DNA of 64,000 nt from an uncultured virus (IMG/VR IMGVR_UViG_3300031720_000001) (taxonomy: Duplodnaviria; Heunggongvirae; Uroviricota; Caudoviricetes), in IMG/VR virus record IMGVR_UViG_3300031720_000001. One strand, written 5' to 3'. Both the position numbers and the translations under genes were made by a program. The notes beneath the pieces were generated by a model. That model was not told where the DNA came from, did not search any database, and saw nothing but the letters and a program-made list of their open reading frames with translations. This document shows positions 658-58,774 of this stretch, piece by piece; position 1 is the first letter of the stretch; each line of letters starts with the position of its first letter.

Positions 658-1686
658 TCAAGGTCGGCCGCTCCCCGTGCGGGACCGCTCGTCCTCTTCG
701 CGCTGGCGCTGGGCCAGCGCGATGTCGTCCTCCGAGGGGCCGCCGCCGACGTCCGCCGCCAGGTCGGAGAGGTCCGCGTCGGTCAGCGCGTCGTCCGGTA
801 AGAGGTCCCCATCGAGCTCGGTCGCCACCTTGAGCGGCGACGGCGGGGGCACCGGCGGAGCGGTCGGTGGTGCACCCAGTCGCACGAACGGCGGCGCCTG
901 AGACACCGTCTTGTCACGGGGCGGCGGCTGGGTCGGCCGCCCGGGCGCGATCACGGTCTTGTCGCGGTAGGCCGACTTGCGTTGGGCCACGCGTGTCTGC
1001 TGGGCATGGACGATCGGCCGCACCGCCGCCACCGCCGCGGCCTGCGCGCGCGCGAGCTCTGGATCCAGGGGGACGGCGCGAATCACATTGCCCCGACGCA
1101 CGATCGCCGGGAGCGCTGCGGCCTGCTCGTTCACGAGCAGGTGGTGCCCGGCCGGGATCGTGAACACGACGCCATCGGTGGGCACGGTCTGCGCCTCGTG
1201 GCCCACCAACTCGAACGCCGCGCCGAGCCCCGGCAGCGGCGTGATGCTGCCATCGCCATCGCCCAGGACGTCGCGCGCGTCGCGCTGGAGGCTCTCGAGC
1301 TCGGCGTTGGCCGCCTGCGCGCGCGCGTAGGGATCTCCCTCGGTACCTGTCCGGCCGCGCGCCCAGTCGCTCTCCTCCTCCGCGTCCTGGGCCTGCTGCA
1401 CCTGGTCGAGGTACTCCGCGGGCGGTGGAATGGCCATGTCCTCAACCCGGGCGGTTCGGCTCTTGCCACTGGCAACCACCTGGTCCTTGAGCTTGACCGC
1501 TTCAATCCAGGTCAGGTTCTCGCCCCACACGGCCACCCAGTCCTTGTCGCGCACCCGGTAGAGCTTGCCGGACGTCGCCTGGGCGATCGGGATCTTCGAG
1601 TGGGTCGTGGCCGTCCGGCCATCGGTGAACAGCGGCCTCCGGCCGGGGGGGACCTGGGATCCGGGCTTTCTGGGCTTGGGGGTCAT
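658..1686 (-). CDS. Hypothetical protein with Pro-rich and acidic C-terminus
   Basis: Long ORF; GGAGG just before the ATG of MTPKPRK. Confidence 0.6.
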   Translation of the reverse strand: MTPKPRKPGSQVPPGRRPLFTDGRTATTHSKIPIAQATSGKLYRVRDKDWVAVWGENLTWIEAVKLKDQVVASGKSRTARVEDMAIPPPAEYLDQVQQAQDAEEESDWARGRTGTEGDPYARAQAANAELESLQRDARDVLGDGDGSITPLPGLGAAFELVGHEAQTVPTDGVVFTIPAGHHLLVNEQAAALPAIVRRGNVIRAVPLDPELARAQAAAVAAVRPIVHAQQTRVAQRKSAYRDKTVIAPGRPTQPPPRDKTVSQAPPFVRLGAPPTAPPVPPPSPLKVATELDGDLLPDDALTDADLSDLAADVGGGPSEDDIALAQRQREEDERSRTGSGRP

Positions 1687-1700
1687 GCGAGGCCTCCAGG

Positions 1701-2156
1701 TCACGCTATCACACCGCGCTGGAGCCGGTCCGCGATCACGACCGAGGTGCTGTCCGGCAGCGACGCTCGACGTCCGGCCATCCAGTCCTCGATCCACGCG
1801 TTGGCGGCCTGGAGGTTTGTCTCCTCGAGTTGGGTCAGCGGCGGCTCGCCCAGCCACTCGCCGGTAAGGAGCATCGGATCGCGCTCCGGGTGGACCCGGT
1901 ACATCGTCACCCGCAGGAACTGCGGCACCTTGGAGCGTTGGGACGACGAGGTCGCGAAGAACAGGCCGCGCACGCACGCCGGCGCGGACATGTCGAGCTC
2001 GACGCACATCACCAGCGTCTCGGAGAGCGCCCACTCCCGCGAGCTGGCGCCCAAGACCGACAGGTACCGCCGAACGACCTCCTGGTAGTGCATAAGACTC
2101 ATCTTACAGGCAGGTGCATCAAATGGCAGCGGATCCATCGCGCATCGATCGTTCAA
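1701..2156 (-). CDS. Hypothetical protein (start uncertain)
   Basis: ORF with protein-like composition filling the gap between neighbours. Confidence 0.45.
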   Translation of the reverse strand: MNDRCAMDPLPFDAPACKMSLMHYQEVVRRYLSVLGASSREWALSETLVMCVELDMSAPACVRGLFFATSSSQRSKVPQFLRVTMYRVHPERDPMLLTGEWLGEPPLTQLEETNLQAANAWIEDWMAGRRASLPDSTSVVIADRLQRGVIA

Positions 2157-3517
2157 TGATCCCAGCCAAAGGACCCATGACCCCCATGACCAGACTCGGC
2201 ATGTCCGCCACCCTTTCCTTCTCGCTCGGCGCCTTGGCGCTCGCGTTGTTCGCCCACCCTGTGCTCGCCGATGAGATTGGCTATCGGAGCTTCAGCTCGT
2301 CGGCCGCCATCGGCCCACCGGCCGAGGAATTTGCCGCCAAGCTCCAGAGCCTCACGGCCACCGCGCTGGGCGCGCCCGAGGAGGTGCGGTTCATCAAGCT
2401 GGCCGGGCTGCCCGCGATCCCCGGGCAGTTCGGGGGGGACATCGTGTCGGCCGTCGCCGCCGGCACGACGGGCGGCGGGTTCGACGCGGCCTACATCTCG
2501 GGAAGCGATCTCAACAAGGTCTGGGGCTTCGTGTTCAACTCCGGCGTGCCGTTCGGTCCCACGTTCGACGAGTTCACGGGCTTTCTCTATGGCAAGTCGA
2601 TCGAGGGCGGCAAGACCGGCCTCGAGCTCGTGCAGGAGCTCCTGGATCTGCACCACCGCAACGTGGTGGCGATCCCGATCGTCGGCAGCCCCGAGCAGTT
2701 GTCCGGGTACTTCTCGGAGCCGATGGACGACGTGCACGGCCACAAGGGCATCGGCCTGGCAGGGCTGTGCGGCAAGCCCTGGGTCTTGCGCTACCTTCCG
2801 CCGGCCGAGAACATCCTGGGCCTAGCCTGTGACGACCTGGTGGCGCAGGGCAAGGTCGCCAAGAAGCGGATCAGCTTCATCGCGGCGGTCCCGGGCGGCG
2901 GCTCGCTGATCGACGGCGTGCTCGCGGGTACGCTGCAGGGCTTCGAGTTCGCGACCCCGCTGGACGACGTGTCCCAACTCTTCAACACCGCCAATAACCC
3001 CGGCACGGTCGGGGTCCGCTTCGTCCACACGCCCGGGTGGCAGCAGCAGTTCCTGGTGACCTGGATGATCATCAACCGCGGGGTGTGGAACACGCTCAGC
3101 GCCGGGCAGCGGGCGATCACGCTGTCGGTCGCGCGCGATCACGTCGTGTCGTCGTACGGCGAGAACCTGCGCCGCCAGGGCGCAGCACTGCAGTTCATCC
3201 TGGACGCCAACAAGAAGGACGGCAACCCCAACAACGACATGGTGCTGAGCCGGTGGACCCTGCGCGACCAGGGGCGGCTACGCGACGCGACGATTCGATT
3301 TCTCAACGCGCGCATCGACGACGCGGCGCTGCCCGCTGGCGACCGCACCGACTACGCCCGGGTGCTGGAGGCGTTCCGGCTCTACGTGCACGACAACGTC
3401 CATTACTGGGACCGCCGGCAGGTCGACACCCAGCAGCGGTTTGAGGACTGGGCCGATCGGTCGGGCAACTGCTGGGACGAGAAGTGCGACCCGCAGCGCT
3501 GCAGCCGACGTCCCTAG
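2156..3517 (+). CDS. Secreted TRAP (DctP/TakP-like) solute-binding protein
   Basis: Signal peptide ALALFAHPVLA-DE; GGFDAAY..SGVPFG..GLEL..NVVAIP..EQLSGYF pattern resembles DctP/TakP proteins. Confidence 0.6.
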   Translation: MIPAKGPMTPMTRLGMSATLSFSLGALALALFAHPVLADEIGYRSFSSSAAIGPPAEEFAAKLQSLTATALGAPEEVRFIKLAGLPAIPGQFGGDIVSAVAAGTTGGGFDAAYISGSDLNKVWGFVFNSGVPFGPTFDEFTGFLYGKSIEGGKTGLELVQELLDLHHRNVVAIPIVGSPEQLSGYFSEPMDDVHGHKGIGLAGLCGKPWVLRYLPPAENILGLACDDLVAQGKVAKKRISFIAAVPGGGSLIDGVLAGTLQGFEFATPLDDVSQLFNTANNPGTVGVRFVHTPGWQQQFLVTWMIINRGVWNTLSAGQRAITLSVARDHVVSSYGENLRRQGAALQFILDANKKDGNPNNDMVLSRWTLRDQGRLRDATIRFLNARIDDAALPAGDRTDYARVLEAFRLYVHDNVHYWDRRQVDTQQRFEDWADRSGNCWDEKCDPQRCSRRP

Positions 3518-3520
3518 CGA

Positions 3521-3884: not shown

Positions 3885-4229
3885 TCAGGCGACCTCGCTG
3901 GCGACCGGCGCGTCCGTGCATTGGGGGCACGCCCAGCCGTCGATCTTCTCATCCCAGCGCCAGCCACTGGGCTCAAGCACGGCGACCGGAGGGACGCCGC
4001 AAGACACGCTCTGCTGATGCCCGCATCGACAGGTCACGAGCAGATGGGGCATCCTTGGCATCTTGGCAAGGATCCGGTCCATCTCCTGCTTTGTGAGGGC
4101 CGGGGGCTGATCAGCGACTGGGCCAAATAACCGTCGCATGACCCACTGATCGACCTGACGGCGGACCACGTTGATCGCGATGAACGCGAACAGGCACGCG
4201 ACAAAACAGACCACGAACAACTGCGACAT
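3885..4229 (-). CDS. Membrane-anchored Zn-ribbon hypothetical protein
   Basis: N-terminal hydrophobic helix; CRCG and CPQC. Confidence 0.5.
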   Translation of the reverse strand: MSQLFVVCFVACLFAFIAINVVRRQVDQWVMRRLFGPVADQPPALTKQEMDRILAKMPRMPHLLVTCRCGHQQSVSCGVPPVAVLEPSGWRWDEKIDGWACPQCTDAPVASEVA

Positions 4230-7760: not shown

Positions 7761-8714
7761 TCAGTGCATCCTATACGAGACGTTGGTCACCCGGCCATCC
7801 CAGCACGCCCGGCAGTTCCGGCACATGTTGACCGCGCTGTCGATCGCGTGGCACACGATCGCCCCCTTCTGACGGAGCGGTGGACGCTCGCCCAACCGGT
7901 GTGTCGTGGACGTCGGCAGATGTGCGATCTCCGCGGGCACCTCCGGTGCCTTGCCGATGTAGTGCGCCGACAGCCGGACGGTCAGGTTGTCCGGGATCAC
8001 CCCGCCCGCCCGCAGGTACTGGACGACGTCGCCATACTCGCGGGTCGGGAGCCAGTGCCGCACGTTCGGCGTCGCCTCCGCTACTGCACAGATCGCGGCC
8101 AGGTGCCACGCCCCGTGCAGGTCCCCGGAATCGTGCCACCGGAACGCGGGCTCGCCCCCGGCCTCCACGTAGTCCAGGATCAAGACGATCATCGCCTCGA
8201 TCCAGTAGCGGTGCCGGATCGCCGCTTGGCGCTTGGCCCGGGCCGCGACCGCCGCATGCCAGTAGCGATAGAAGTTCCGGCGCGCGTAGCAGCCCGAGCA
8301 CGTCGAGGTCGGGTCGTCCACGAGCGCCGACCCAGCCCGGCACTGGAACGCGTCGATCCCGTACGCCGCGCCGGGCATCTTCGACGGCTGGCCCAGGGTC
8401 CCGGCGATGGCGCTCGCCTGCTGCGTGGTCATCTTCAGCGCCAGCTCGAGGCGAGCTCGTAGCGGCCGGGGCAGGCGCTCGGCGTCGCCGCGCGCGAACT
8501 TGCCGCCCCCGTTGATGGTCTCGCACGCGGGCACCATCGTCGTGCCGTCGCCCAGGTCCACCGGCTCCGCGTGCTTGGCCCGGGTGCGCTTGCACCAGAT
8601 ACAGCGCGGCTCGTCAAAGTCATCGAACAGCGCCGCAATGGACTGTGGGGTCGGCGAGCTCAGAACCGGCAGCGAGACCCGACGCGGGGCGGTGACCACC
8701 TTGACGCTTGGCAT
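7761..8714 (-). CDS. GP88-like phage protein (radical-SAM-like Fe-S)
   Basis: SKMPG..C..CSGCYA..FRWHDSGD..HWLPTRE..NLTVRLS..CRNCRACW. Confidence 0.75.
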   Translation of the reverse strand: MPSVKVVTAPRRVSLPVLSSPTPQSIAALFDDFDEPRCIWCKRTRAKHAEPVDLGDGTTMVPACETINGGGKFARGDAERLPRPLRARLELALKMTTQQASAIAGTLGQPSKMPGAAYGIDAFQCRAGSALVDDPTSTCSGCYARRNFYRYWHAAVAARAKRQAAIRHRYWIEAMIVLILDYVEAGGEPAFRWHDSGDLHGAWHLAAICAVAEATPNVRHWLPTREYGDVVQYLRAGGVIPDNLTVRLSAHYIGKAPEVPAEIAHLPTSTTHRLGERPPLRQKGAIVCHAIDSAVNMCRNCRACWDGRVTNVSYRMH

Positions 8715-8745: not shown

Positions 8746-8760
8746 CTTGCCAGTGGCAAG
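8746..8760. promoter_or_regulatory. Palindromic operator CTTGCCAGTGGCAAG
   Basis: Perfect palindrome upstream of the GP88-like gene. Confidence 0.7.
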
Positions 8761-15503: not shown

Positions 15504-15848
15504 TCATTTCTTCTTGGTGACGGCCCGCCGCCGGCTCACGCGACCGCTGGGCGCTTCGCTCGAGAGGGTCACCCGCATCACCATCTCGTACTGCGGCAGG
15601 GTCGTGAGCTCGCCGGGAGCCCGGAGCCGCCACTCGACCCCCGTCACGTAGAGATCCATCGTGCCGAGCTCGAGGTCGCCCGTATCGCCGCGTTTGGCGT
15701 AGTCGGCGTAGATCCGATCACCGACCTGGGGGCGGAAGGTGTCCGGGGCGCTCAATGTCACGCCGTCGATGCGGAGCACCCGGGCGTCGACGTCGCGCAC
15801 CAGAATCTCCTCCTTGGCGTCAAAGCGATATTCAACGGGGAATGTCAT
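15504..15848 (-). CDS. Hypothetical protein
   Basis: Coupled ORF in the minus-strand run. Confidence 0.5.
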   Translation of the reverse strand: MTFPVEYRFDAKEEILVRDVDARVLRIDGVTLSAPDTFRPQVGDRIYADYAKRGDTGDLELGTMDLYVTGVEWRLRAPGELTTLPQYEMVMRVTLSSEAPSGRVSRRRAVTKKK

Positions 15849-16140
15849 CGGGCACCGTCCGCGGAAAAGACCTCGTCATCGAGCCGGAGTTCGATGATGC
15901 CAGTGTCCGTCGCGTTCCGGCTTGGTTCTGGGCTCGGCCCAGGTTCCGCCGCGCTCCACCGACCGCCGGTCAACTTCGGGATCCCGGTCGCGACGTCCTC
16001 CCAGTTGTCCGCCAGTAGGTCCTCCGTAGTGAGCCGATAGGTGTAGCCCTCAGCCCACTGGACAAAGCCAGCCCCGCCCCGAACCCGCATGTACGCACGA
16101 CCGTTCTTCTTGCTGAGCGTGAGCGCCTCGATGATGGTCA

Positions 16141-16389
16141 TCACTCCCTCTCTTTGCCACTGGCAAGTTGTGCGGCGGCCAGCCGGACCTGAGCCTCCCA
16201 CGCGTGCCGGTAGGCCGCCTCAAGCCGCTCGAGGTGCGCGACCTTCGCGGCAAGCTTGGTCTCGTTCGCGCGCGCAGCGGCCAACTCGGCGCGCAGCGGC
16301 AGCACCACGTCGCTCTCGAAGTTGTGGAGCTTGATGCTCAGATCACGGACGCGTTGATTTGCGTCGTGTAGGGGATTGCGCCGGCGCAT
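16141..16389 (-). CDS. Small coiled-coil protein starting MRRRNP
   Basis: Heptad pattern; RRNP motif. Confidence 0.45.
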   Translation of the reverse strand: MRRRNPLHDANQRVRDLSIKLHNFESDVVLPLRAELAAARANETKLAAKVAHLERLEAAYRHAWEAQVRLAAAQLASGKERE

Positions 16390-20506: not shown

Positions 20507-21358
20507 TTGGAGATCTCCGCAAAGAACCTGCAGGCGTTCCGCGCTTGGCTCACCCAGCGCGGCCGGTCGGACGACACCGCCGAACTCTACATCGGCAACC
20601 TCAGGTCCTGCGCCGCCCACCCCAAGGGACTCACCCACCGCCTGATCGCGGGCGAGCTCGCCCCCAACACCGTCCGCACCAACCTCGCCGCCCTCCGCGC
20701 CTGGGCCAAGTTCAGCGGCGACGTCGCCTTCGCCCAGCGCCTGGGCGACATCCGCCTACCCCCCGCACGCCGGGTCAAGACCAAGCTGCCGCTGGGCGCT
20801 GCGGACTGGAAAAAGGTCGTGCGCCACCTGCAGACCTGCCCCATGCGCCCCGAGGTCATGCGCCACGTGCTGCTGATCATGGCGATCCGGGGCTTCCGGT
20901 CGGGCGACGTCCTCCGCATGAAGCGGACCGAGATCGTGCGCGCGCTTGCCACTGGCAAGCTCACCTACGAGGGCAAGGGTCGCAAGCGGATCGAGTTCTC
21001 GGCCGAATTGCTCCGGGATCAGTTCCAGGCGCTGGCCCAGATCAAGGGCTGGGAGCGGGTGAGCGACCTGTTGGGAACGGGGACCAGTCGACGGGGGCTC
21101 TCGCGCAAGGTCTGGCGGGCGGCGATCCGCACGGCCAAGGGCTGCGGGATCCCTGAGATGAACCCGCACCGCTACCGGCACACGGTCGCCACCCAGTTCC
21201 TGGCCGAGCTCGCGGGCGACCCCAACGCAATCGTGAAGCTCCAGAAGTGGATGGCGTGGGAGAGCATGGGGACCGCGGCGCGCTACGTCGATCAGATCTC
21301 GGTCGACGAGCTCGACAAGGTCGGCGCCGGCCTGGTCGCGAACCTGCTCCGTAAGTAG
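20507..21358 (+). CDS. Tyrosine recombinase/integrase
   Basis: GFRSGD (Arg), GKG (Lys), HRYRH, W..Y catalytic residues; SAM-like N-terminal domain. Confidence 0.88.
   Translation: MEISAKNLQAFRAWLTQRGRSDDTAELYIGNLRSCAAHPKGLTHRLIAGELAPNTVRTNLAALRAWAKFSGDVAFAQRLGDIRLPPARRVKTKLPLGAADWKKVVRHLQTCPMRPEVMRHVLLIMAIRGFRSGDVLRMKRTEIVRALATGKLTYEGKGRKRIEFSAELLRDQFQALAQIKGWERVSDLLGTGTSRRGLSRKVWRAAIRTAKGCGIPEMNPHRYRHTVATQFLAELAGDPNAIVKLQKWMAWESMGTAARYVDQISVDELDKVGAGLVANLLRK
20945..20959. promoter_or_regulatory. Palindromic operator inside the integrase CDS
   Basis: CTTGCCACTGGCAAG written with rare CTT and ACT codons. Confidence 0.6.
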
Positions 21359-26339: not shown

Positions 26340-26354
26340 CTTGCCAGTGGCAAG
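26340..26354. promoter_or_regulatory. Palindromic operator
   Basis: Perfect intergenic copy. Confidence 0.7.
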
Positions 26355-31319: not shown

Positions 31320-32498
31320 TCACCTCCGCCGCTTTTTGCTGCTCCGGACGTTCTTGGTCGGCTGGACGTTCTTGGTCGGCTTGATTCCCTGGACGTGGCG
31401 CATGTAGGCCTGCCAGGGCTTGGCAAACGTCGCGGCATCCTTGAGGCCAACGACCCAGCGCGCGCCATCCATGAGTCCCCGCACGTAGTCGTGGGTTGGT
31501 GGCTTCTTGGTGGCCATGGCCAGGAAGTCATCGACCACCGCGTACGACGGCTTGGTCAGGGGCTTGACCGGCTGGACCGGGCGGGCCGGTGGAGGGGGCA
31601 GCGGCAGCGGGGCCTGCGCGCGCGGGGCCTTGGCCTTGCTCGAGGGGGCCTTCGTCGCAGAAGCCTTGGGAGGCTTCGCGGGCTTGGGCTCCGCCTGGGC
31701 GGCGATCCGCTGTTCCTTGGCGTGGACGCGCGCGCCGGTCTTGTCGCCTTCCTTGCGCGCCTCGACGACCCGGGAGGCCGCGTCGCGCTGCTTGCCCGGA
31801 TCGCGCTCGGCCGCCAGGTCCTTGAACTGCTCGTCCGTGATCTCGCCCGTCTTCCAGGACAGGAGAAGCTTGGGGCTGGCGTGCTCGCGGGCCGCCAGGA
31901 TCTTCGAGACCCAAGACTCACTCCTCCGGATCGCCTGGGCGATCTTGGCCAGGATGAAGTCCTTACCCGTGTCGGGATCCCGGCTGCCGCGCAGACGCTG
32001 GGCGGCCTCACTGAGCTCGAAGCTCGAGAGCCCGGCGCGGGTGCCGACCGCATCGAGCGCGCGCAGGAGGTACTTGTCGGCGAGCTCGCGGGTCCAGGTG
32101 ACGGGCTCGGACTCCAGGTCAAAGACCGGGATCAGGGTGTCGGGCGGCAGGTCCGCCTTCTCCACGGCCCGATATCGGCGCTGGCCGTCAATGACCAGGT
32201 TCACCACGGCGCCGTTGATGAAGATCTGCACGACCTCGAGGGGGACGCGGACGCCAGCGACGGTCTGGACGTGCTCCTCCACCTCGCTACTGGTGGTATC
32301 GGACAGGATGCTCTGCGTGAGCTCCTCGATCGAGGCGTCATCCAACCCGGTCTGGCTGCGCGGGTTCGCCCACCACTTGGTCTCGAGCAAGAGAGTCGAG
32401 AACGCCACGTAGCGGATCGCGCGCTGACCCTCCGGAGGGTCAGCGGTCGAGGGGTCGGCGGCCACGGACTGAGAATCGGAGTCGGTCTCGTTCTGCAT
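31320..32498 (-). CDS. ParB/KorB-like DNA-binding protein
   Basis: NPR..IEELTQSI..PL.V..IDGQRRYRA ParB box; HTH LAKIAQAIRRSESWVSKIL; GGAGGA RBS. Confidence 0.8.
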   Translation of the reverse strand: MQNETDSDSQSVAADPSTADPPEGQRAIRYVAFSTLLLETKWWANPRSQTGLDDASIEELTQSILSDTTSSEVEEHVQTVAGVRVPLEVVQIFINGAVVNLVIDGQRRYRAVEKADLPPDTLIPVFDLESEPVTWTRELADKYLLRALDAVGTRAGLSSFELSEAAQRLRGSRDPDTGKDFILAKIAQAIRRSESWVSKILAAREHASPKLLLSWKTGEITDEQFKDLAAERDPGKQRDAASRVVEARKEGDKTGARVHAKEQRIAAQAEPKPAKPPKASATKAPSSKAKAPRAQAPLPLPPPPARPVQPVKPLTKPSYAVVDDFLAMATKKPPTHDYVRGLMDGARWVVGLKDAATFAKPWQAYMRHVQGIKPTKNVQPTKNVRSSKKRRR

Positions 32499-32692
32499 AG
32501 TTCCTCCAGGGGTGAAGAAAAGGGGCGGGAGCGCACGCAGGGAAACGCGCGCCCTTCGCGTCGGCGGGCCCCGGGTGGGAGGGCACGCGTCGCTGGCTAC
32601 CGCCGTCGCCGTTCGTCCGGCGCGTTACCGCGGACGACTCAAGAGCTCGGCATGGGGCATCTCCATCTCGGGGATCGCATGATGCACAGGTT

Positions 32693-32711
32693 TTCTTGCC
32701 AGTGGCAAGAA
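32693..32711. promoter_or_regulatory. Extended palindromic operator upstream of the parB-like gene
   Basis: TTCTTGCCAGTGGCAAGAA. Confidence 0.75.
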
Positions 32712-38865: not shown

Positions 38866-38959
38866 CGTTTCTGCCCCCAAGGGGCCATGGTTGTAGCTGT
38901 AACCCTGCTTGCCAGTGGCAAGAGCGCTCGTCGCTCGTGACACCGATCCGCGGGCTACT
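38866..38959 (-). repeat. Intergenic regulatory direct repeat, copy 1
   Basis: 52 bp (38908-38959) identical to 39404-39455, plus a shared CCCCCAAGGGGCCATGGTTGTAGC block. Confidence 0.9.
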
Positions 38960-39347: not shown

Positions 39348-39359
39348 TTATGAGATCTC

Positions 39360-39455
39360 CGTTTCCGCCCCCAAGGGGCCATGGTTGTAGCCGGGTAACC
39401 CAACTTGCCAGTGGCAAGAGCGCTCGTCGCTCGTGACACCGATCCGCGGGCTACT
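39360..39455 (-). repeat. Intergenic regulatory direct repeat, copy 2
   Basis: Matches copy 1 at 38866-38959. Confidence 0.9.
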
Positions 39456-41815: not shown

Positions 41816-41830
41816 CTTGCCAGTGGCAAG
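41816..41830. promoter_or_regulatory. Palindromic operator in the divergent control region
   Basis: Perfect copy; TTGACA at 41906-41911. Confidence 0.7.
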
Positions 41831-42145
41831 AAATCAGGTCCGAGGGGCCATTCCGAGGGGTTGGCCCGACTCTGGCCGTCCGGAGTGGTGAAAACCGGCC
41901 AAAGGTTGACACTCCGGATGTGAAAAACGGACACGTTTCACCACTCCCGGGCAGCCTATCAGGTACTTGGGTCCGTTCTGTCAGGTCAATCCGGAGGTCT
42001 AGCAACCCCTGGGCCACAGGCCATGGCCTACGGACCCCTACTTCGAGGCCAGGGAAGCGCTCCGAAAGCGCTCTGCTACCCCACGATCGGGCCAGCGAAA
42101 TCGCGCATGATGTTCATGATGCGTCGAATCGAACCGAGGAACGAC

Positions 42146-43152: not shown

Positions 43153-44960
43153 GCCAAGAATTCGGCCCCAAGCGGAGACTCCTGCGGGATGTCCCGTCGC
43201 CCGAGACCGAGCTCGAGACGCCCGAGGCGCGCCGGGAGGCCCGGGATCCGGAGGTGCCCGCGGAGGACTCCGGGACGGATGACCGCGATCGCAAGGAAGC
43301 GGACGCGGAGCCCGAGGACCGGGCCAAGCGCGACAAGCGCGACAAGGCCGAGCGCATGTCGCCGACGATGACCGCGATCCGGAACGAGGAGGAGCGGTCG
43401 CTCAAGGAGTGGCTGGACGGCCTGGGCCAGGTCGGGGCGTTCAAGGTGCAGTTGCGTCGCGAGCAGCCCAAGCACGTCCGGGTGAACGGCCGCGACGTCA
43501 AGACCGAGGGATTCCTCGAGACCTACGATCACTCCATCGATGAGGAGTTCATCCAGAAGGAGCACGGCGGCGGCACGTACGCGATCAAGGTGACCCGCCG
43601 GGGTGCCAACGGCAGCTACAAGTACGAGCCCGGGCTTCACCGGACCATCACGATCGCCGGCGACCCCAGCCTCGAGCGGCTCCCCTCGAGCACGCCCGCG
43701 GCCGGCGCCGCTCCTGCGCCGACACAGCCCGCCGAGGGCCTGGGCTTCGTCAAGGAGACGTTCGGGGTGCTCACCAAGGAGATCGACCGCCTGCATGAGC
43801 GCAGCGAGCGCAAGGAGCCGGTGGTCCCCAAGGGCATCGACCCGGCGCTTCAGGTGGTGCTGGATCAGATGCGGCGCGACGCGGATCGCCGCGACAAGGA
43901 GGTCGGCGAGCTCCGGGTCGAGCTCGCGCGCGCGCGCGACACCAAGCCAGCCGAGGACCCCATCAAGGACAAGATCCTTGGCTCGCTGATCGACGGCGAA
44001 TCGGGCCGGATCGCCGCGCTCCGACTGACCCACGACTCAGAGCTCCGACAGATCAAGGACGCGACCGTCGCCGAACAGAGCCGGCGCGACGATCGCCACG
44101 AGCGCGACGTCGCGGCCCTGCGCGCCGGTCACGAGCGCGAGATCGCCACCATGAAGGCCAGCTACGAGCGCGAGATCGCCGCGCTCCGCCAGACCCACGA
44201 GGTCACCAGCGCGATCTCGACCCAGAGCAGCAACCTGCAATTGAAGGTGCTCGAGAACGACAACAAACGGCTGGAGCGCGAGCTCGACGCGCTCCGGATC
44301 GAGGTCAAGGACCTCCGTGCCCGCAAGGACAAGACCATCGTCGAGCAGGCCAAGGACCTCGAAACGATCAAGGACGCGCTGGGGCTCGACAGCGGTGACA
44401 AGACGAACTTCGACAAGCTGCTCGAGGTGGTCTCTAGCCCCGCCGCGGCCGAGTTCGTGGGTCGGATCGTCGGTGGCAAGGAGACCGCCGCCGCGACCAC
44501 GACGGCCGCCACCGCCCAGGCGGCGGGTCCGTCCCGGACCTTGGTCCAGGCGGCGGACGGCCAAAAGTACTGGCACGTGACCGACGGCAAGGGCGGCCAG
44601 CGCTTGGTCCCTGCCAAAAAGAAGCCCAAGGTGATCCCCGCGATCGTCAACCCGGATGGCACCGTGGCCACGCCGGAGATCGTCCTACCGGAGATCGACC
44701 CCACGCAGATCGCGGTGGTGGTGGGATACCTCGAGCGCGCCTTCGCTTCCCGGCAAGAACCCGAGGTGGTGGCACAGAGTGGGAGGACGACCGTCCCCGA
44801 GGAAATCCTGACGTGGATCCGCACGCATGACACCGAGCAGGTCTCCGGCGTTGACCTGTTCATGTCTAAGGTGGCAAAATTACCGGGCACCTCGCCCCTC
44901 TTGTCGCAGGCAGGAAAGAACTGGCTGCGCAAGGTGGGTAAGGCGCTCGTCGGCGACTGA
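43149..44960 (+). CDS. Large coiled-coil protein
   Basis: 603 aa ORF with a long heptad region. Confidence 0.75.
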   Translation: MSQEFGPKRRLLRDVPSPETELETPEARREARDPEVPAEDSGTDDRDRKEADAEPEDRAKRDKRDKAERMSPTMTAIRNEEERSLKEWLDGLGQVGAFKVQLRREQPKHVRVNGRDVKTEGFLETYDHSIDEEFIQKEHGGGTYAIKVTRRGANGSYKYEPGLHRTITIAGDPSLERLPSSTPAAGAAPAPTQPAEGLGFVKETFGVLTKEIDRLHERSERKEPVVPKGIDPALQVVLDQMRRDADRRDKEVGELRVELARARDTKPAEDPIKDKILGSLIDGESGRIAALRLTHDSELRQIKDATVAEQSRRDDRHERDVAALRAGHEREIATMKASYEREIAALRQTHEVTSAISTQSSNLQLKVLENDNKRLERELDALRIEVKDLRARKDKTIVEQAKDLETIKDALGLDSGDKTNFDKLLEVVSSPAAAEFVGRIVGGKETAAATTTAATAQAAGPSRTLVQAADGQKYWHVTDGKGGQRLVPAKKKPKVIPAIVNPDGTVATPEIVLPEIDPTQIAVVVGYLERAFASRQEPEVVAQSGRTTVPEEILTWIRTHDTEQVSGVDLFMSKVAKLPGTSPLLSQAGKNWLRKVGKALVGD

Positions 44961-44987: not shown

Positions 44988-45617
44988 GTGAAAGGCACGT
45001 TGACCGGATCGCAGCCACATCGCCCCCCCGCCCCCGGCTTGCCACTGGCAAGTCCCGGATACGGTGGGTCGCGCCTGTTCTGGCTGCCCGATCAGCCGCC
45101 GACGTCACGGGTTGGATACTCGGGGGCCCCGCAGACCATCGCGGTGATGCGCAAGGCCGCGCTGGACGACGCCAACCACTTCATCACCCGCGAGTTGGCC
45201 GAGACGGTCTGCGAGGGCCTGGACTCCAAGGACTACACCTCCGAGTACTTGGCGCTCTACCAGTTCCTCCTCCAGCGCACCCGGTACATGCGGGATCCCC
45301 GGCGCACCGAGCTCGTGCGGGCGCCCTACATCATCAGCCAGCAGATCATGGCAGGTCACCGGCCGAGCCTGGACTGCGACGACATGGCGTGCTGGTTGGC
45401 GGCGGCGGTGCTGGCGGTCGGCGGGCGGCCGGAGTACTGCACGGTCGCGTTCGCCCGGCTCATGTACGGCGATCAGCCGCAGTACTCCCACGTGTTCATG
45501 CGCGCCCTCGAGCCCCGCACGCGGGTCCATCTCGTCCTCGACCCGGTGGCGGCCGAGAAGACGCCGCAGATGCTCTCGCGAATCAAGCAAGCCGCAACGT
45601 GGCCGGTGGCGGCCTAG
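44988..45617 (+). CDS. Transglutaminase-like cysteine protease (candidate maturation protease)
   Basis: RYMRDP..ELV..P; LDCDDM (Cys), SHVF (His), LVLDP (Asp). Confidence 0.75.
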   Translation: MKGTLTGSQPHRPPAPGLPLASPGYGGSRLFWLPDQPPTSRVGYSGAPQTIAVMRKAALDDANHFITRELAETVCEGLDSKDYTSEYLALYQFLLQRTRYMRDPRRTELVRAPYIISQQIMAGHRPSLDCDDMACWLAAAVLAVGGRPEYCTVAFARLMYGDQPQYSHVFMRALEPRTRVHLVLDPVAAEKTPQMLSRIKQAATWPVAA

Positions 45618-45638: not shown

Positions 45639-47336
45639 ATGGCCTACAACCTACCAAATGCATGGGACCCGGGGTTCGCGCTCCCGTCCAATGTCGTCGA
45701 CGAGGGCCTCGAGCGGCGCGGCTTTGTCACCAAGCAGATGCCGCGCGGCACCTATGACAATCCATCGGTGGGGACGGGTGGCTTCGCGGTCCCCCAGTAC
45801 ATCAAGGACGAGGGCTACGGCCAGGGCACGTTCACCACCAAGTGGCAGCCGTCGGGCTCCTACAACGGTCCCAGGGTCCCGCCCTGGCTGAACCAGCGCC
45901 CCAAGGTCGTCCAGCAGCGCCGGCTCCCCGGCGGCGGCCATGCGTACACGGTCCAGCCGCTGGGGGACGACGACGCGCCGATGCCCGCGCCGTTCGAGCA
46001 GTACGGGCAGCGCGCGGCTGCCGAGCTCCTGTCGCGTATCCGCACCTTGCCGCCCGGTCGCCGGCAGGCCGCGATGAAGGCGATCATGGACCAGGTCGAC
46101 AAGAGCCTGTGGAAGCGCACCCAGGACATCACCAAGCGCTACGTGGCGCAGGGCGTACCGGTCGTGCAGGCGTTCCCGCAGGCGCTGGCGCGCGCGCTGG
46201 CGACCGGGATCGCGGCCGAGCTCATCGATACGGGTCTGCGACGTACTGCACCCCAGGCCGCCTCGCTCCTGGGCCTGGGGTGCTATGGGCCACAGGCCTT
46301 GGGAGCGACGCGGGCCTCGCATGTCTCGGGCACGATCCTGGGACAGGGGCCCGTTCTGGTGCCGCCAGCGGCGACGACCAAGGGGGTGGGGGTCTTGACC
46401 GCGCCGGCGGTGCCGGCCGAGCCGACGCTGGTGGTGGCGGGGGTGGGCTTCACGCCGTCCAAGCTGACGCGCGCGTGGGCCACCGGGGTGCCGTCCAGCA
46501 CGGTGGCCAACCGCGCGGCGCCGCCGGACGTGCAGATCGACGATCCCCGGGACATCCCGGCCGAGGCCATCGCGTTCTTGCGCGACCAGCTCCTCACGTA
46601 CGTGGGCGACACGACGCGGTCGTTTTGCAGCACGGACGCCACGACCGGGTTCCCCGAGTGGGACGCCAGCACGTGGTTTGGCGCGCTGGGGATCACCTGC
46701 GATAACAAGATGAACATGCACGCGCTCTGGCACCTGCGGACGGCGATCGCTCCGTTCGCGCGGGTCAAGAACGAGCTCACCGGCGAGCCCATGGTGCTGC
46801 ACATCTCGCTGGCGGCCCGTGACATCTCCAAGCCGGGAGACCCGACCGCAAACCCCTTGGCGCTCAAGTTCTGGCTCTCCAAGGTCCCGGATCTGAGTCT
46901 CTGGCAGTCGATCTGGAACACGCTCATCTGGCTGCCGATGAAGATCGACCAGCACGTGCTCGCGCCCATCGTGCAGCCGATTGTTGACGTCGTGGGCACG
47001 GCCGGAACGGTGATCGGGGCGGGCGCGGGCGCGGTCGGCGACGCGGTCGGCGACGGGCTCAAGAAGCTGGGCGATCTGGCCTGCGACCTGCTCAAGACCC
47101 CGGGCGTCGGCGCCGCAGCGGGCGCGGCGGGCGCGGCGGTGGCCGGGGTGCCCCCCCAGGCGGGCGCGCAGGCAGGCCAGGCGGGCGCGCAGATCGCGCA
47201 GGGCGTGTGTGGCGCGCCGCCCCCGCCGCCGATGTTCATGCCCCAGTCGTCGATCTTGCCACTGGCACTCCTGGGCGGGGTCGCCGTGGTGGGCGCGATG
47301 CTCCTGTTCGGCGGCAAGAAGCGGAGTCCCCCATGA
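45639..47336 (+). CDS. Large virion-like membrane protein
   Basis: AGGAG RBS; MAY start; C-terminal TM helix followed by KKR. Confidence 0.75.
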   Translation: MAYNLPNAWDPGFALPSNVVDEGLERRGFVTKQMPRGTYDNPSVGTGGFAVPQYIKDEGYGQGTFTTKWQPSGSYNGPRVPPWLNQRPKVVQQRRLPGGGHAYTVQPLGDDDAPMPAPFEQYGQRAAAELLSRIRTLPPGRRQAAMKAIMDQVDKSLWKRTQDITKRYVAQGVPVVQAFPQALARALATGIAAELIDTGLRRTAPQAASLLGLGCYGPQALGATRASHVSGTILGQGPVLVPPAATTKGVGVLTAPAVPAEPTLVVAGVGFTPSKLTRAWATGVPSSTVANRAAPPDVQIDDPRDIPAEAIAFLRDQLLTYVGDTTRSFCSTDATTGFPEWDASTWFGALGITCDNKMNMHALWHLRTAIAPFARVKNELTGEPMVLHISLAARDISKPGDPTANPLALKFWLSKVPDLSLWQSIWNTLIWLPMKIDQHVLAPIVQPIVDVVGTAGTVIGAGAGAVGDAVGDGLKKLGDLACDLLKTPGVGAAAGAAGAAVAGVPPQAGAQAGQAGAQIAQGVCGAPPPPPMFMPQSSILPLALLGGVAVVGAMLLFGGKKRSPP

Positions 47337-51359: not shown

Positions 51360-51647
51360 CACGTGGGGACCAGACCACCCAGAAAGTTTCCCGATGGCTC
51401 AACCAATGGCCATCGGCTCGGACGAGCGGCGGTCCGCGCGATCGACGCCTATATGATGGTGGCCAAGAAGGCGGCCGAGCTCGCCGACCACCTGGACCAA
51501 CTGACCGCCCCGGGCGTGATCCGGGCGCTGCTCTCGGACGAGGACAGCCTGGTCATCGTGATCAAGGAGCTCACCGAAGGTCGCGAGTTGTAGGCGGCGG
51601 GGAACGTGCCAACTACCCCTTAAACCATCCGTGATCTCGCGATCCTC

Positions 51648-51685
51648 CTTGCCAGTGGCAAGAAAGGTTCCGAAGGGGGTTGACA
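51648..51685 (+). promoter_or_regulatory. Operator plus -35-like TTGACA upstream of the core/capsid genes
   Basis: Palindrome at 51648-51662; TTGACA at 51680-51685; no clear -10 box. Confidence 0.55.
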
Positions 51686-51717
51686 TAACAAGGCACCCTG
51701 TCCGCAGCCTGGACGTG

Positions 51718-53331
51718 ATGCCGATCCTCTACGTGAACGGGAAGCGCCGCGGAATGCGGGTGCGCGGCAGGGCACGGGTGAGCCTGACCGGGAACCCGAA
51801 GCGGAAGGCACGCAAAGGCAAGGTGCCGCCCGCACTGGCGCGGTACTGGAAGGCGCGGCGCTCGCCGGGGTCGGTCACACGTCGGCGTCGCAAGGGTCGC
51901 AGCTTTCTGCTGCGTGCGCGGAAGGCTAACCCCGCCAAGCGGGTCACACGGCGTGCCCATCGCGGCGTGCACGGAGCTCCGGCCAACGCGGGGTTCTGGA
52001 AGAAGAGGCGCCGTAAAGGCCGCAAGGGGCGGTACTCGGCATACCTATCCAGCGTGGCCGACAGTCGCGGTCGGAAGTCACGACATCGCGGTCGGAAGGC
52101 ACGACATCGCCGTCGCGCCCAGGCGGAATGGCACAAGGACGGCCCGGGTGGGCGATGGGTCCAGGGAGTACGTCGCAAGAAACGTCGCAAGACCAGTCAC
52201 AAGCGGCGCCGTCGAGCCCGCAGGAGCACACCAGTCATGGCGAAGCGTCGGAAGACTCGAAGGAAAGGCGGCGGTCGCTCGAAGGCAGCGCGCCGTCGCG
52301 CGGCACTCAAGGGCGTGCGCCGTCGGCGAGCTCGCGCGGCAACGCCCAAGCGTCGTCGTCGTCGTCAGTCGCGCGCGCGCCACACTAGGCGCCCCCGGCG
52401 TCGTCGGTCGCGGCGGACTGCTACCAAGCGTCGCCGCCGTCGTCGGTCGCACGCGGCCCCGACGCGGCGTCGTCGCCGGTCTCGGCGGTCGCACACGACG
52501 AAGCGCCGCCGTCGCAGGCGGTCGGCCACGAGGCGCGTCACCCGTCGCGGTCGCGGCCGTCGTGCCCACCTCGCCAAGACGATCTTGATGATCCCGGGCA
52601 AGACCCTGCGCGGTAACCCGGGTCGCCGCCGCCGTCGGAAGTCTCGTCGGCGCGGGCGTCGATCGTACCGTCGGTACGGGCGGCGGCGCTACCGGCGCAA
52701 CCCGGGAGGCTTCCTGATCGACCTGGCCAAGCGCGCTCTGCCGGTGCTGTTCGGGTTCTACGGGACCCGGCTGATCGTGAGCCGCATCGGCCCGATGATC
52801 CCGGGCGTCGCATCGCTGGGCACGCTGGCCGGTCCTGTTTTGTCCGTAGGCTCGGTCATCGGCATGAACTACTTCACCAAGAAGGTGGCGTTCCTGGCCA
52901 AGCACCGGACCGAGCTCATGCTGGGCTCGATGTTCTCGGCGATCGACATCGTCATCCAGGCGTTCGCGCCCGCCAGCGTCAAGGCGCTGGTCGGCATGAG
53001 CGACTACGTGGCGGTCGGCGACTACTTCTCGATGGGCGCCATCCCGCTGGACGACCGGATGACGATGTCGGACTACGTGGCGGTCGGCGGCGACGGCGTC
53101 GAGGAGGAGCTCGGGCTCGAGGAGGAGCTCGGCGTCGAGGAGGAGCTCGGCAATGACCTCCTGGGCGGCATGCCGGGCGCGGCCTCGCTGATGAAGCAGG
53201 TCCCCACGCAGCGGTTCATGCAGCCGATCCCTGCCCGGTCGTTCACGCGCCAGATCCCGGCGGCCGGTACGTCGTACGACAACCCCAACCAGCTCTACGC
53301 CGGCATCTTCAACGGCGGGTTCGGTCGCTAG
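51718..53331 (+). CDS. Protamine-like Arg-rich core protein fused to a membrane domain and acidic repeats
   Basis: About 330 aa of Arg/Lys runs with NP motifs, then hydrophobic helices, MSDYVAVG x2 and EEELG x3. Confidence 0.75.
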   Translation: MPILYVNGKRRGMRVRGRARVSLTGNPKRKARKGKVPPALARYWKARRSPGSVTRRRRKGRSFLLRARKANPAKRVTRRAHRGVHGAPANAGFWKKRRRKGRKGRYSAYLSSVADSRGRKSRHRGRKARHRRRAQAEWHKDGPGGRWVQGVRRKKRRKTSHKRRRRARRSTPVMAKRRKTRRKGGGRSKAARRRAALKGVRRRRARAATPKRRRRRQSRARHTRRPRRRRSRRTATKRRRRRRSHAAPTRRRRRSRRSHTTKRRRRRRSATRRVTRRGRGRRAHLAKTILMIPGKTLRGNPGRRRRRKSRRRGRRSYRRYGRRRYRRNPGGFLIDLAKRALPVLFGFYGTRLIVSRIGPMIPGVASLGTLAGPVLSVGSVIGMNYFTKKVAFLAKHRTELMLGSMFSAIDIVIQAFAPASVKALVGMSDYVAVGDYFSMGAIPLDDRMTMSDYVAVGGDGVEEELGLEEELGVEEELGNDLLGGMPGAASLMKQVPTQRFMQPIPARSFTRQIPAAGTSYDNPNQLYAGIFNGGFGR

Positions 53332-54753: not shown

Positions 54754-55286
54754 TGTCCTACCACCGCCCACCGCGCTTGGCCCTGGTCGGTCGCGCTCGC
54801 GGCCGGAGCGAAACCATGTCCGGAGCCCTGCCCGTGGGCGACGTGGCCGGGTTGGTGGCGGGCGACCAGTTGCCGCAACTGGCCGCGGTCGTCAACCGGT
54901 TCGGGCCCGGCGCGCCGGCCGCCTACCAGTTCACCAGCAAGGTCTTCCCGGTTGCCACTGGCAAGATCGATCCCGAGATCGCGCTGGTGGCGACCACCAT
55001 CTACCTCCGGCGGGCGACCGACGCCTACAGCCAGTTCCACGATCCGGGGTCGGCGGCGGCGATCGCGCGGGCCAACGCGGGGTTTGGCGATCCGGTCGGC
55101 TTTGTGACCGCGAACCTGGCCGACGTGGTGACGACGATCGGCGGGTTCGCCGACAGCCTGGGGCTCCCCGCTGCGGGGGGCGCCGGATCGCTCCCGGGGC
55201 TCCCTTCCACGATCGCGGGGATCGACACGCAGACTGTCCTCCTGGTTGCAGGCGGGGCCCTTGCGCTCTGGATGGTGACCCGATGA
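54753..55286 (+). CDS. Membrane-anchored protein with MxY leader
   Basis: MSYHRPPR..VGD; C-terminal TM. Confidence 0.65.
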   Translation: MSYHRPPRLALVGRARGRSETMSGALPVGDVAGLVAGDQLPQLAAVVNRFGPGAPAAYQFTSKVFPVATGKIDPEIALVATTIYLRRATDAYSQFHDPGSAAAIARANAGFGDPVGFVTANLADVVTTIGGFADSLGLPAAGGAGSLPGLPSTIAGIDTQTVLLVAGGALALWMVTR

Positions 55287-57590: not shown

Positions 57591-57976
57591 TGCCGTACTT
57601 TCGCAAGCTGCCTCCCGCGCCCCGCCCCCGCTCGCTGTTCGGGTTCGGGGACTTCAACGACGAGTCGCCGTGCGCGTCGATCCCGGTCGGCGATGCGTAT
57701 CGCAAGCCGGGCAACTACTGCGCCACCGCCGATGGCGGCTACACGACCTTCAACGCGGACGGGTCGGTCTACGCGGTCCCGGTCGCCAAGCCACCGGACA
57801 CCTCGATCATCGGCAAGATCGGCGGCGCCATCCTGGGCGCGCTCACCCCCCAACCACCGGTCTACCCCCCGGGCATGATGCCCGGCGTGCCGGTCGGGAT
57901 GTCCACCACCACCAAGATCGCCCTGGCCGGCGGCGCGCTCCTGGTGGTCGCACTGATCGCGCGTCGCCGCGGATAA
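57590..57976 (+). CDS. Small membrane protein with MxY leader
   Basis: MPYFRK..RPRSLFGFGD; TM followed by RRR. Confidence 0.7.
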   Translation: MPYFRKLPPAPRPRSLFGFGDFNDESPCASIPVGDAYRKPGNYCATADGGYTTFNADGSVYAVPVAKPPDTSIIGKIGGAILGALTPQPPVYPPGMMPGVPVGMSTTTKIALAGGALLVVALIARRRG

Positions 57977-57985
57977 AGGACCTCC

Positions 57986-58267
57986 ATGGCCTACACCAAG
58001 AACACCCTCATCAGCCGCGCGGGCTACAACGGCCGTCGCAACGGCATGGGCGACGTCTGGGACTCGATCACGGGCGCTGCAGGGTCCGTATTGAAGTTCT
58101 ACGGGACGTCGCAGCAGGCCCAGGGCGCCGCGCTGGCCACCGCGCAGCAGAACAAGGACCTTACCACGGCGCTCCTGTCGCGCCAGGGCATGGGGATGGA
58201 GACCATCCTGCTCCTGGGCGGCGTGGGGCTGGCGGCGTTCCTCCTGCTCCGCAAAAAGAGCGCGTAG
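57986..58267 (+). CDS. Small membrane protein with MxY leader
   Basis: MAY..RRNGMGD; TM followed by RKK. Confidence 0.75.
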   Translation: MAYTKNTLISRAGYNGRRNGMGDVWDSITGAAGSVLKFYGTSQQAQGAALATAQQNKDLTTALLSRQGMGMETILLLGGVGLAAFLLLRKKSA

Positions 58268-58774
58268 ATGGCGCAGGCGCTCAGCATCGACCTGACCGAC
58301 CCAGCCGTCCAGCGCATGTTGGGGGGTGGGGAAGTTGCCAGTGGCAAGCGAGGCATCGTCCAACTCGCGGGCGACCGGGGGATGTCGTCCACGACCTACC
58401 TCGAGCAGGGCAAGCACGAGGTGGTGGTGGTCTACAAGGACACATTCCTGACGGTGGATGTGTACTTGGTGGCGGGCGCCGTGCCGGAGGTGTGGGTCAT
58501 CTGCCCCGGGTGCCACAAGGCCTGTCGCATCCCCAGCGGCACCAAGGCGGTGGACTTCGATCCGGGCGCCCCCAACCCCGTGCGGGCGCAGATCGTCAGA
58601 TCGGGGGTGCGCGAACTCATCGCGATGGCCGCGCGCGGCCGGCTCTCGGTCGAGCCGTTCCAGTGCACGTGGGAGACCGGTGGCGAGGCCCACGTCGCGG
58701 GTGGGGTGCACACCGGCGCGTCGCTGTGCCGGCAGAAGCTCGTGATCGACGATAACCGCGCCAAGGACGCGTGA
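58268..58774 (+). CDS. Zn-binding hypothetical protein
   Basis: ICPGC..FQCTW..LC. Confidence 0.6.
   Translation: MAQALSIDLTDPAVQRMLGGGEVASGKRGIVQLAGDRGMSSTTYLEQGKHEVVVVYKDTFLTVDVYLVAGAVPEVWVICPGCHKACRIPSGTKAVDFDPGAPNPVRAQIVRSGVRELIAMAARGRLSVEPFQCTWETGGEAHVAGGVHTGASLCRQKLVIDDNRAKDA

Follow-up and report, generated by a model that had tools for sequence, protein, structure and literature searches.

An orphan ParB-family gene and an evenly spaced array of dispersed palindromes in a clade of tailed-phage-like genomes

Palindromic sites in the window

The window analyzed in this study is the whole 64,000-nt stretch of the uncultured virus record IMGVR_UViG_3300031720_000001, in which we found an orphan ParB-family gene (hereafter, the ParB-like gene) together with dispersed copies of a short palindrome (Table 1). 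The ParB-like protein is located on a phage-like 92,154-bp contig from soil with a guanine-plus-cytosine (GC) content of 68%, ranging from 64 to 70% along the whole window. A single sequencing run contains the stretch, a soil metagenome that is probably its source sample. The element is read as a novel high-GC tailed-phage-like genome of approximately 92 kb, of which 64 kb lies in the window.

The 13-mer TTGCCASTGGCAA occurred exactly 13 times in the window and was absent from each of 100 dinucleotide-preserving shuffles. An exact pattern count placed all 13 copies where the initial annotation had reported them; the coordinates given there were the starts of the 15-mer, one position before the 13-mer starts in Table 1. 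The estimate of about 0.001 copies expected by chance was also correct (0.16^6 x 0.34^6 x 0.68 x 64000). When up to two mismatches were allowed, 15 matches were found in the window compared with a shuffle mean of 0.74. The two additional matches were the near-copy already recorded at 47255 (one mismatch, 13-mer start 47256) and a two-mismatch copy at 41528, whose membership is doubtful because of this shuffle mean. The full 15-mer CTTGCCASTGGCAAG was present at nine of the 13 exact sites.

Eight of the 14 sites with at most one mismatch were intergenic according to independent gene calls, in agreement with the earlier statement that about half of them are, whereas only 14% of the window is non-coding. 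These gene calls were based on codon usage and are crude, and the distances from sites to start codons are therefore approximate. The sites within genes are written with codons that are rare in the window, as had been noted: CTT accounts for 3.6% of Leu, GTT for 4.7% of Val, ACT for 2.8% of Thr, and AGT for 3.9% of Ser codons.

Table 1. Palindromic sites, ParB-like gene, and leader element in the window
Feature	Position	Strand	13-mer start	Description
Site CTTGCCACTGGCAAC	1462..1476		1463	inside coding sequence (CDS) 658-1686 (-)
Site CTTGCCAGTGGCAAG	8746..8760		8747	intergenic, divergent gap; ~32 nt upstream of GP88-family gene 7761-8714 (-)
Site TTTGCCACTGGCAAG	16153..16167		16154	last 13 nt of open reading frame (ORF) 16141-16389 (-); ~9 nt upstream of start of 15845-16144 (-)
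Site	20945..20959		20946	inside tyrosine-recombinase-like gene 20507-21358 (+); CTT GCC ACT GGC AAG = L A T G K; position common to relatives
Site	26340..26354		26341	between co-oriented (-) genes: 5 nt after 26359-26847, ~34 nt before 25509-26306
Orphan ParB-family gene	31320..32498	-		392 amino acids
Conserved structured leader	32524..32604	-		between site/promoter-like element and ParB-like start codon; four helices
Site	32695..32709		32696	197 nt upstream of ParB-like start codon
Site	38908..38922		38909	~51 nt upstream of DNA polymerase III beta-like clamp gene (-); in 66-nt direct repeat
Site	39404..39418		39405	~57 nt upstream of gene 38955-39347 (-); in second copy of 66-nt repeat
Two-mismatch copy TTGCCGCTCGCAA	41528..41540		41528	membership doubtful
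Site	41816..41830		41817	large divergent non-coding region separating - strand and + strand gene blocks
Site	45038..45052		45039	between co-oriented (+) genes 43149-44960 and 45144-45617
Near-copy CTTGCCACTGGCACT, one mismatch	47255..47269		47256	68 nt before stop of 45639-47336 (+); exact sites at same codons in G009 and G010
Site	51648..51662		51649	55 nt after 51453-51593 (+); at or just before putative 5' end of long ORF 51631-53331 (+)
Site	54951..54965		54952	inside CDS ending 55286 (+); codons GTT GCC ACT GGC AAG
Site	58334..58348		58335	inside CDS 58268-58774 (+), 67 nt from start; variable, indel-rich part of protein

Two other repeats were found close to the sites. A 66-nt direct repeat (38899-38964 and 39395-39460, 94% identical) holds the palindrome and its upstream flank, and a site-plus-promoter module thus appears to have been duplicated ahead of two successive genes. 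Additionally, four copies of a 25-nt repeat with the hairpin GGCCCC(TT)GGGGGC (38865-38889, 39359-39383, 41418-41442, and 41744-41768) each lie just 5' of a - strand gene start, with a palindromic site or near-site preceding three of the four.

Conservation of the palindrome in related genomes

Alignment-based scans for ParB-like loci identified seven viral contigs (75.6-86.4 kb, six with direct terminal repeats), three contigs from metagenome-assembled genome (MAG) bins, and 32 metagenome loci. The seven viral contigs were found by the alignment-based scan of the viral contig collection, in which a scan with the single protein found no relative. The ParB-like proteins shared 38-51% identity with that of the window in the viral and MAG-bin loci and 33-56% in the metagenome loci.

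Exact copies of TTGCCASTGGCAA numbered 10 in G001, 7 in G002, 11 in G003, and 1 in G004, and there were none in G005, G006, and G007, although G006 and G007 kept the core with the half-sites TTTCCA/TGGAAA. Sites in the relatives were counted as matches with at most one mismatch to TTKCCASTGGMAA. By this count, 14 sites were present in the window (64 kb) and in each of G001, G002, G003, and G010, with 15 in G006, 13 in G007, 10 in G009, 9 in G004, and 0 in G005. The palindrome or its TTTCCA/TGGAAA variant was therefore found in 9-15 copies in eight of nine related phage records of 73-89 kb. A reversed-pattern control gave 0-1 matches in the relatives, and the flank scores were bimodal, the sites being either nearly perfect or random.

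We also considered the palindrome as a repeat of the host chromosome, comparable to HIP1. The three MAG bins (approximately 19 Mb in total), which may not be hosts, contained 1, 4, and 8 matches, and all 13 were on the phage contig; five unrelated viral contigs with a chance match carried one copy each. These results speak against a host-wide, HIP1-like repeat, as far as bins that are possibly not hosts can represent one.

Clustered repeat arrays in non-coding DNA were observed in the two genomes with no or weak dispersed sites, and none were seen in the motif-rich genomes. They consist of approximately 20 copies of CTCAAGGC-atgga-GCCTTGAG at 16.9-18.5 kb of G005 and seven or more copies of CTCGGCGCTGCCGAG at 26.7-27.2 kb of G004.

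Spacing of the sites and selection on the DNA

The gaps between successive sites had a coefficient of variation of 0.29-0.52, compared with approximately 0.9 under random placement. Spacing was more even than expected by chance (P <= ~0.01) in seven of nine genomes, the exceptions being G004 (P = 0.32) and G007 (P = 0.10), and this result was unchanged when the random positions were restricted to gene junctions. The best-kept position was the site upstream of the ParB-like gene (eight of nine genomes). Sites upstream of the 25509-26306 family and within the 3' end of 45639-47336 were each retained in seven of nine genomes, and the site within the recombinase-like gene in seven of eight.

Codon alignments were informative for the sites within genes. 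In the recombinase-like gene, the window, G001, and G003 all write the residues L-A-T-G-K as CTT GCC ACT GGC AAG, and in G009 the center of the site changes from C to G, with Thr replaced by Ser. The motif-less G005 encodes L-S-T-G-K as CTC TCG ACG GGC AAG at this position, and in another G005 gene L-A-S-G is written CTG GCG AGC GGC, with no site. Moreover, in the CDS 58268-58774 the site is retained in an indel-rich, poorly conserved stretch of the protein. G005 acts as a natural control, with codons at the GC-rich norm where the site system is gone, and as judged from these alignments selection on the sites is at the DNA level.

Even spacing would also suit a structural or processing role, in which the sites would mark the DNA for packaging, nicking, cleavage, replication priming, or site-specific modification and no regulator is involved. 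Methyltransferases are encoded in these genomes, and G001 additionally encodes an HNH nuclease and a QueD homolog. Nevertheless, cutting or nicking both strands at a palindrome would break the genome into pieces, and the 13-15 bases specified by the palindrome far exceed the usual targets of methyltransferases. The core sites of tyrosine recombinases have spacers of 6-8 bp, to which the 7-1-7 geometry of the palindrome is mismatched, and the palindrome was rejected as a target of such a recombinase on this basis. A signal of this kind is considered very unlikely.

Palindrome as a site for a dimeric protein

Another explanation places the function in RNA, with a small hairpin just 5' of ribosome-binding sites controlling translation, processing, or stability. 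In approximately 17 cases across the genomes, a site falls 9-18 nt ahead of a start codon, after the previous stop codon and before the Shine-Dalgarno sequence, and the 15-mer can form a 6-bp stem with a 3-nt loop (-6.4 kcal/mol). However, the half-sites vary without compensation, pair 3-11 being non-complementary in 12 of the 15 sites of G006, and the RNA hairpin was rejected on these uncompensated changes. In addition, the would-be loop is itself symmetric (CCA-S-TGG), sites are also found in the middle of genes and in divergent gaps, and the center base was unbiased by orientation in non-coding sites (22 C, 12 G; p = 0.12), which renders the RNA explanation extremely unlikely. The independence of the half-sites and the symmetry through the center, together with the mid-gene and divergent-gap locations and the lack of orientation bias, instead fit a site for a dimeric protein on double-stranded DNA.

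Linkage of the site to the ParB-like gene

For the region upstream of the ParB-like gene, 33 loci were examined, after L055, L056, and L065 (identical to L001, L002, and L006) and six partial matches without the 5' end of the gene had been dropped. A site was present within 900 nt upstream of the ParB-like match in 23 of the 33 loci, nine of which are short contigs with that single site, so that the upstream site described for the window in the initial annotation was recovered both there and in most relatives. Among the 10 loci without a site, six (the G004 clade) carry the two-mismatch remnant CTTGCCACTGTCATG at the same place, two are too short upstream, and L070 has unrelated upstream sequence. 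G005 has a perfectly symmetric variant, CTTGCAACTTGCAAG, upstream of its ParB-like gene, and this is its sole such site genome-wide. By its position, the palindrome is tied to the ParB-like gene, and this position is its strongest link to the ParB-like protein.

On the - strand of the window, the half-site TTGCCA lies 18 nt before CATCAT in an arrangement resembling -35 and -10 elements. In the aligned leaders, a -10-like CATGATG was found at a constant distance from the site in 10 of 14 cases, the window having CATCATG. We infer that the half-site occupies the -35-like position of a putative promoter of the ParB-like gene. Scans of the window with sigma-70 and terminator consensus patterns were no better than shuffles (3 vs 1.9 and 7 vs 7.5, respectively).

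The leader between the site and the ParB-like start codon is approximately 200 nt long overall and includes a conserved structured element (Table 1). In the leader alignment (A4), 91.5% of cells were paired, compared with 78.5% in shuffles and 37-53% with partners slid, and compensatory changes were found at ten pairs. The element is also present in G005. No Rfam family was assigned to the ParB-like leader, the one match having an expectation value (E) of 0.26 and lying under the gathering score. The leader element may be a new cis-regulatory RNA.

Characteristics of the ParB-like protein

From the N-terminus, the ParB-like protein comprises a ParB/Srx-like domain and a helix-turn-helix (RSESWVSKIL), then a linker and a small helical domain, and it ends in a basic tail. 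A total of 111 homologs were found, in some of which PF02195 and PF17762 were detected. A profile of 35 homologs (alignment A1) matched the solved ParB/Spo0J chains 4umk (E 4.6e-4), 1vz0, and 6t1f, the 4umk match extending over the N-terminal domain and the helix-turn-helix; the window protein as a single sequence gave no match to solved structures. Among the 35 family members, TIGR00180 matched 17, TIGR04285 (the Noc model) 7, Pfam ParB_N 7, and HTH_ParB 8. The arginine-rich box II (GERRxRA in the superfamily) has the sequence DGQRR (D104 G105 Q106 R107 R108), which was invariant in 35 of 35 homologs and aligned to GERR of Spo0J/ParB, with Glu replaced by Gln.

The AlphaFold2 model had a predicted local distance difference test (pLDDT) score of 85.7, and its top Foldseek matches were Noc (7nfu, E 4e-8), ParB (6t1f, E 1e-7), and KorB (8qa9, E 2.9e-6) over approximately 240 aligned columns. 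The N-terminus of the window protein is acidic, with pLDDT below 50 at residues 1-4 and 8-21. On the basis of profile and predicted fold, the product of 31320-32498 is a divergent member of the ParB fold, and the ParB/KorB-like identity proposed in the initial annotation is supported by the profile matches, the AlphaFold2 model, and the Foldseek matches. In an exhaustive profile search, 527 cluster representatives passed E <= 0.001, and 131 of these also passed E <= 1e-30; the family is distinct and moderate in size. The ParB fold is able to bind cytidine triphosphate (CTP), adenosine triphosphate, or guanosine triphosphate, as described in PMC12704722.

Absence of ParA

No ParA or CbiA/AAA_31 gene was found by Pfam among the 95 ORFs of the window, which covers 64 kb of the 92,154-bp contig. 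Likewise, no ParA-type Pfam match was obtained in 131 of the 134 ORFs of G001, and neither PF13614 nor PF01656 was found in any of 5 complete relatives (positive controls, 14/14). The ParA-binding motif [LFI]G[KR]G[LFI], as defined in PMC12704722, was absent from the window protein and from the matched segments of the 33 loci. With neither ParA nor a ParA-binding motif, classical ParABS partition is unlikely. The initial annotation had suggested a partition system and a search for parA in the flanks; the partition part of the proposal was not supported.

The sites might still serve as dispersed centromeres, following the model of IR1-4 in the phage-plasmid N15, through which the ParB-like protein would segregate or position an extrachromosomal prophage by means of a host ParA or a ParA-independent route. 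The related MAG-bin contigs are unintegrated and have the size of a whole phage (72.8 and 88.7 kb), one genome for each of 185,579 species contained no integrated copy, and the small tyrosine recombinase could resolve dimers; moreover, SopB of N15 acts on the IR1-4 centromere sites (PMC7205306). Apart from the missing ParA and ParA-binding motif, however, fourteen even sites, many of them placed after one stop codon and before the ribosome-binding site that follows, exceed the needs of segregation, and we regard the centromere explanation as unlikely.

Proposed role of the ParB-like protein

We consider it somewhat more probable than not that the orphan ParB/KorB/Noc-like protein loads at the palindromes as an autoregulated, genome-wide regulator or organizer, not as part of a ParA-driven partition. 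The 15-bp palindrome cTTGCCA(C/G)TGGCAAg would be the specific DNA site of the 31320-32498 protein, a dimer of which would bind each palindrome via the helix-turn-helix. The site that precedes the ParB-like gene by approximately 200 nt overlaps the -35-like position, and binding there would result in autoregulation; the remaining sites, which occur every ~5 kb and mostly at gene junctions, would open the entire genome to the protein. On the model of KorB, ParB, and Noc, we infer binding and nucleotide-dependent loading as a clamp, outward sliding from the sites, and an effect on transcription, which would likely be genome-wide silencing or timing in a KorB-like or stoperator-like manner, perhaps together with DNA organization. 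Even spacing would be the product of selection for whole-genome coverage. The results themselves show the motif, its conservation, the even spacing, the DNA-level selection, the ParB fold, the site-gene linkage, and the absence of ParA.

Several results weigh against the proposal. The Glu-Asn pair of box III (ENxQRxDL) is associated with CTP hydrolysis and clamp closure in ParB proteins. This pair is not kept in the family, in which 'avgtRegL' stands against 'ENIQREDL' of 4umk and only Arg (R154, invariant) and Leu are retained, which makes nucleotide hydrolysis by the ParB-like protein doubtful. The window protein itself had no Pfam ParB match (PF02195/PF17762) at E up to 10 and reached 18.6 bits with TIGR00180, for which the cut-off is 58.45. 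No covariation of the helix-turn-helix with the motif was found, RSESWVSKIL being the same in TTGCCA genomes, TTTCCA genomes, and G005, and G010 has the helix RDPGTVSKFL yet the standard motif. G005 has kept the ParB-like protein and lost the dispersed sites. Furthermore, the ParB-like gene is present in seven of seven viral-contig family members, so that its phyletic pattern is no different from that of any core gene, and other site positions are nearly as well kept as the one upstream of the gene (7/9 vs 8/9). The related genomes also share ancestry, and the counts and spacing tests are consequently not independent. Changes in the 'GEITDEQFKDL' segment of the protein do follow the motif variants, in a manner confounded with phylogeny, and a core-protein profile scan of viral contigs for relatives lacking the ParB-like gene recovered the same seven contigs, none without it.

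The lack of covariation and the persistence of the protein in G005 would also fit if another dimeric DNA-binding protein of the phage, such as an immunity or timing repressor, bound the palindromes and the ParB-like gene were merely one of its targets. Several families found in at least six of eight motif genomes are missing from G005, for example, that of window 63637-64000, and a precedent is known from mycobacteriophages, whose repressors have numerous 'stoperator' sites scattered along the genome (PMC9283540). On the other hand, no position is better kept than the one upstream of the ParB-like gene, which is also the sole one left in G005, and no other recognized site-specific DNA-binding fold emerged from Pfam on the 95 window ORFs or from the ParB-family searches. 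A weak comparison, with a single motif-less genome, gave a few candidate families, none of which has a recognizable DNA-binding fold; the best phyletic candidate is without DNA-binding likeness, the family present in nine of nine motif genomes and missing from G005 having no informative fold or profile match. A different binder is rather doubtful in our view.

Comparison with known systems

The orphan ParB-like regulator proposed here was compared with four known systems. KorB of the IncP plasmid RK2 is a sliding clamp dependent on CTP; from its loading sites, which are dispersed 13-bp palindromes, it silences distant promoters, and its OB core, TTTAGCGGCTAAA, has the 6-1-6 geometry to which the initial annotation aptly likened the palindrome (PMC11790492, in which a reference title gives 'its 12 binding sites'). 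The ParB-like protein resembles KorB as a ParB-family member in which a helix-turn-helix follows an N-terminal domain of the type that binds nucleotides in KorB (fold match 8qa9, E 2.9e-6). KorB likewise has a 13-bp 6-1-6 palindrome at about a dozen dispersed sites, one of which controls its own operon, and the window has 13 dispersed palindromic operator-like sites, one at the putative promoter of the ParB-like gene. The systems differ in that KorB belongs to a plasmid replicon with an IncC/ParA partner, whereas this is a phage with no ParA. The site sequence is different, the phage sites are evenly spread genome-wide and often lie inside operons or genes, and the similarity of the phage protein to KorB is at the fold level only. 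A clamp-locking partner like KorA or TrbA was not identified in the phage, no systematic search for one having been made; clustered CCACTCCGG-type repeats in the divergent region are no more than a lead to the operator of such a co-repressor.

Noc tethers DNA to the membrane via an N-terminal amphipathic helix. It is an orphan ParB paralog of Bacillus nucleoid occlusion that has no ParA and many dispersed palindromes (Noc-binding sites, NBS), and it is named as an orphan ParB in PMC12704722. These traits are shared with the phage system, Noc 7nfu was the best Foldseek match (E 4e-8), and TIGR04285 matched 7 of 35 family members. In contrast, Noc is chromosomal, and the protein described here belongs to a phage replicon and has an acidic N-terminus modeled at low confidence.

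The phage-plasmid N15 offers a likeness in having several separate palindromes for a ParB-type protein in a phage genome, SopB and IR1-4 (PMC7205306). N15, however, combines SopA (a ParA) with four sites, whereas at least 13 evenly spaced sites and no ParA are present here. In Cluster A mycobacteriophages (L5/Bxb1-type), many genome-wide stoperators are bound by a repressor that halts transcription (PMC9283540), and many of the sites described here similarly occupy the short intervals that separate co-oriented genes. According to the same source, a stoperator lacks symmetry and its repressor binds as a monomer; the site in the window is palindromic, without significant orientation bias (22:12, p = 0.12), and its candidate binder is of the ParB family. 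Phage T-dioxygenases have ParB activators that were also considered as a model and rejected, since they are described as having no DNA-binding domain (PMC13229309) and no TET/JBP family member was found by Pfam among the 95 window ORFs.

A more specific and tentative possibility, which we consider less probable than not by a wide measure, is a ParA-less 'self-painting' of the genome, in which loading sites that selection keeps every 5-6 kb, even within genes and at the expense of rare codons, would let sliding clamps cover it. The system could serve the phage for master silencing or immunity, or it could shield or organize the phage DNA. G005-like relatives would then appear to have given the system up, keeping the autoregulatory site alone.

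The nucleotide switches of ParB-family proteins have so far been associated with chromosome and plasmid segregation, Noc, and long-range silencing by KorB. If binding and sliding are confirmed, the phage would control or organize its whole genome by a ParB clamp without ParA, and there would be a reason for selection on regular site intervals. Many orphan ParB-like proteins of phages and mobile elements have been catalogued with functions unassigned (PMC12704722), and the open-access papers and preprints searched yielded no account of a phage clade in which a ParB-type array is conserved and evenly spaced over the whole genome. ParB-family proteins with dispersed palindromes are thus known (KorB, Noc, and N15 SopB), and what is apparently new is such an array in a phage clade. 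The clade provides a ready test case, with a defined protein, a 15-bp site, and approximately 14 evenly spaced natural copies per genome, as well as natural variants, including TTTCCA half-sites, the symmetric TTGCAA form, and one genome without the array.

Other features of the genomes

Megablast of 20 kb of the window against phage and plasmid collections and tblastn of two window proteins against the phage collection gave no match. Pfam and PHROGs recognized neither terminase, portal, nor capsid genes, either in the window or in G001, which is a complete relative, and the presumed structural genes of the + strand (42000-64000 of the window) all went unrecognized. One presumed structural protein was placed in protein-atlas clusters labeled Uroviricota. 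The virion genes of this clade are unusually divergent.

Pfam and PHROGs identified the following proteins in the window: a DNA polymerase III beta-like clamp, a primase-like protein, two DNA methyltransferases, a GH25 endolysin with a peptidoglycan-binding domain, an M23 peptidase, the small tyrosine recombinase, and GP88 and DUF5131 proteins. In the presumed structural block, 58778-60454 (+) encodes a 558-amino-acid protein with a response-regulator receiver domain (PF00072, E 4.6e-8). The G001 genome encodes a QueD/PTPS homolog (L011:5682-6092, E 6e-29), a DUF1643 protein (L011:2321-2902), and a 653-amino-acid protein with a weak Cas12f1-like TNB match (L011:14498-16459). The QueD homolog hints at DNA modification of the 7-deazaguanine type in G001.

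Additionally, clustered palindromic repeats of the CCACTCCGG/ACTCCGGAGTG type were observed in the divergent control region beside a palindromic site, at 41880-41949 of the window, 77.7-78.6 kb of G004, 74237-74343 of G006, and 4027-4133 of G007. The window has three copies within 70 nt, yet the 9-mer is not over-represented overall (27 vs ~40 expected). A second regulator may have its operator in these clustered CCACTCCGG-type repeats.

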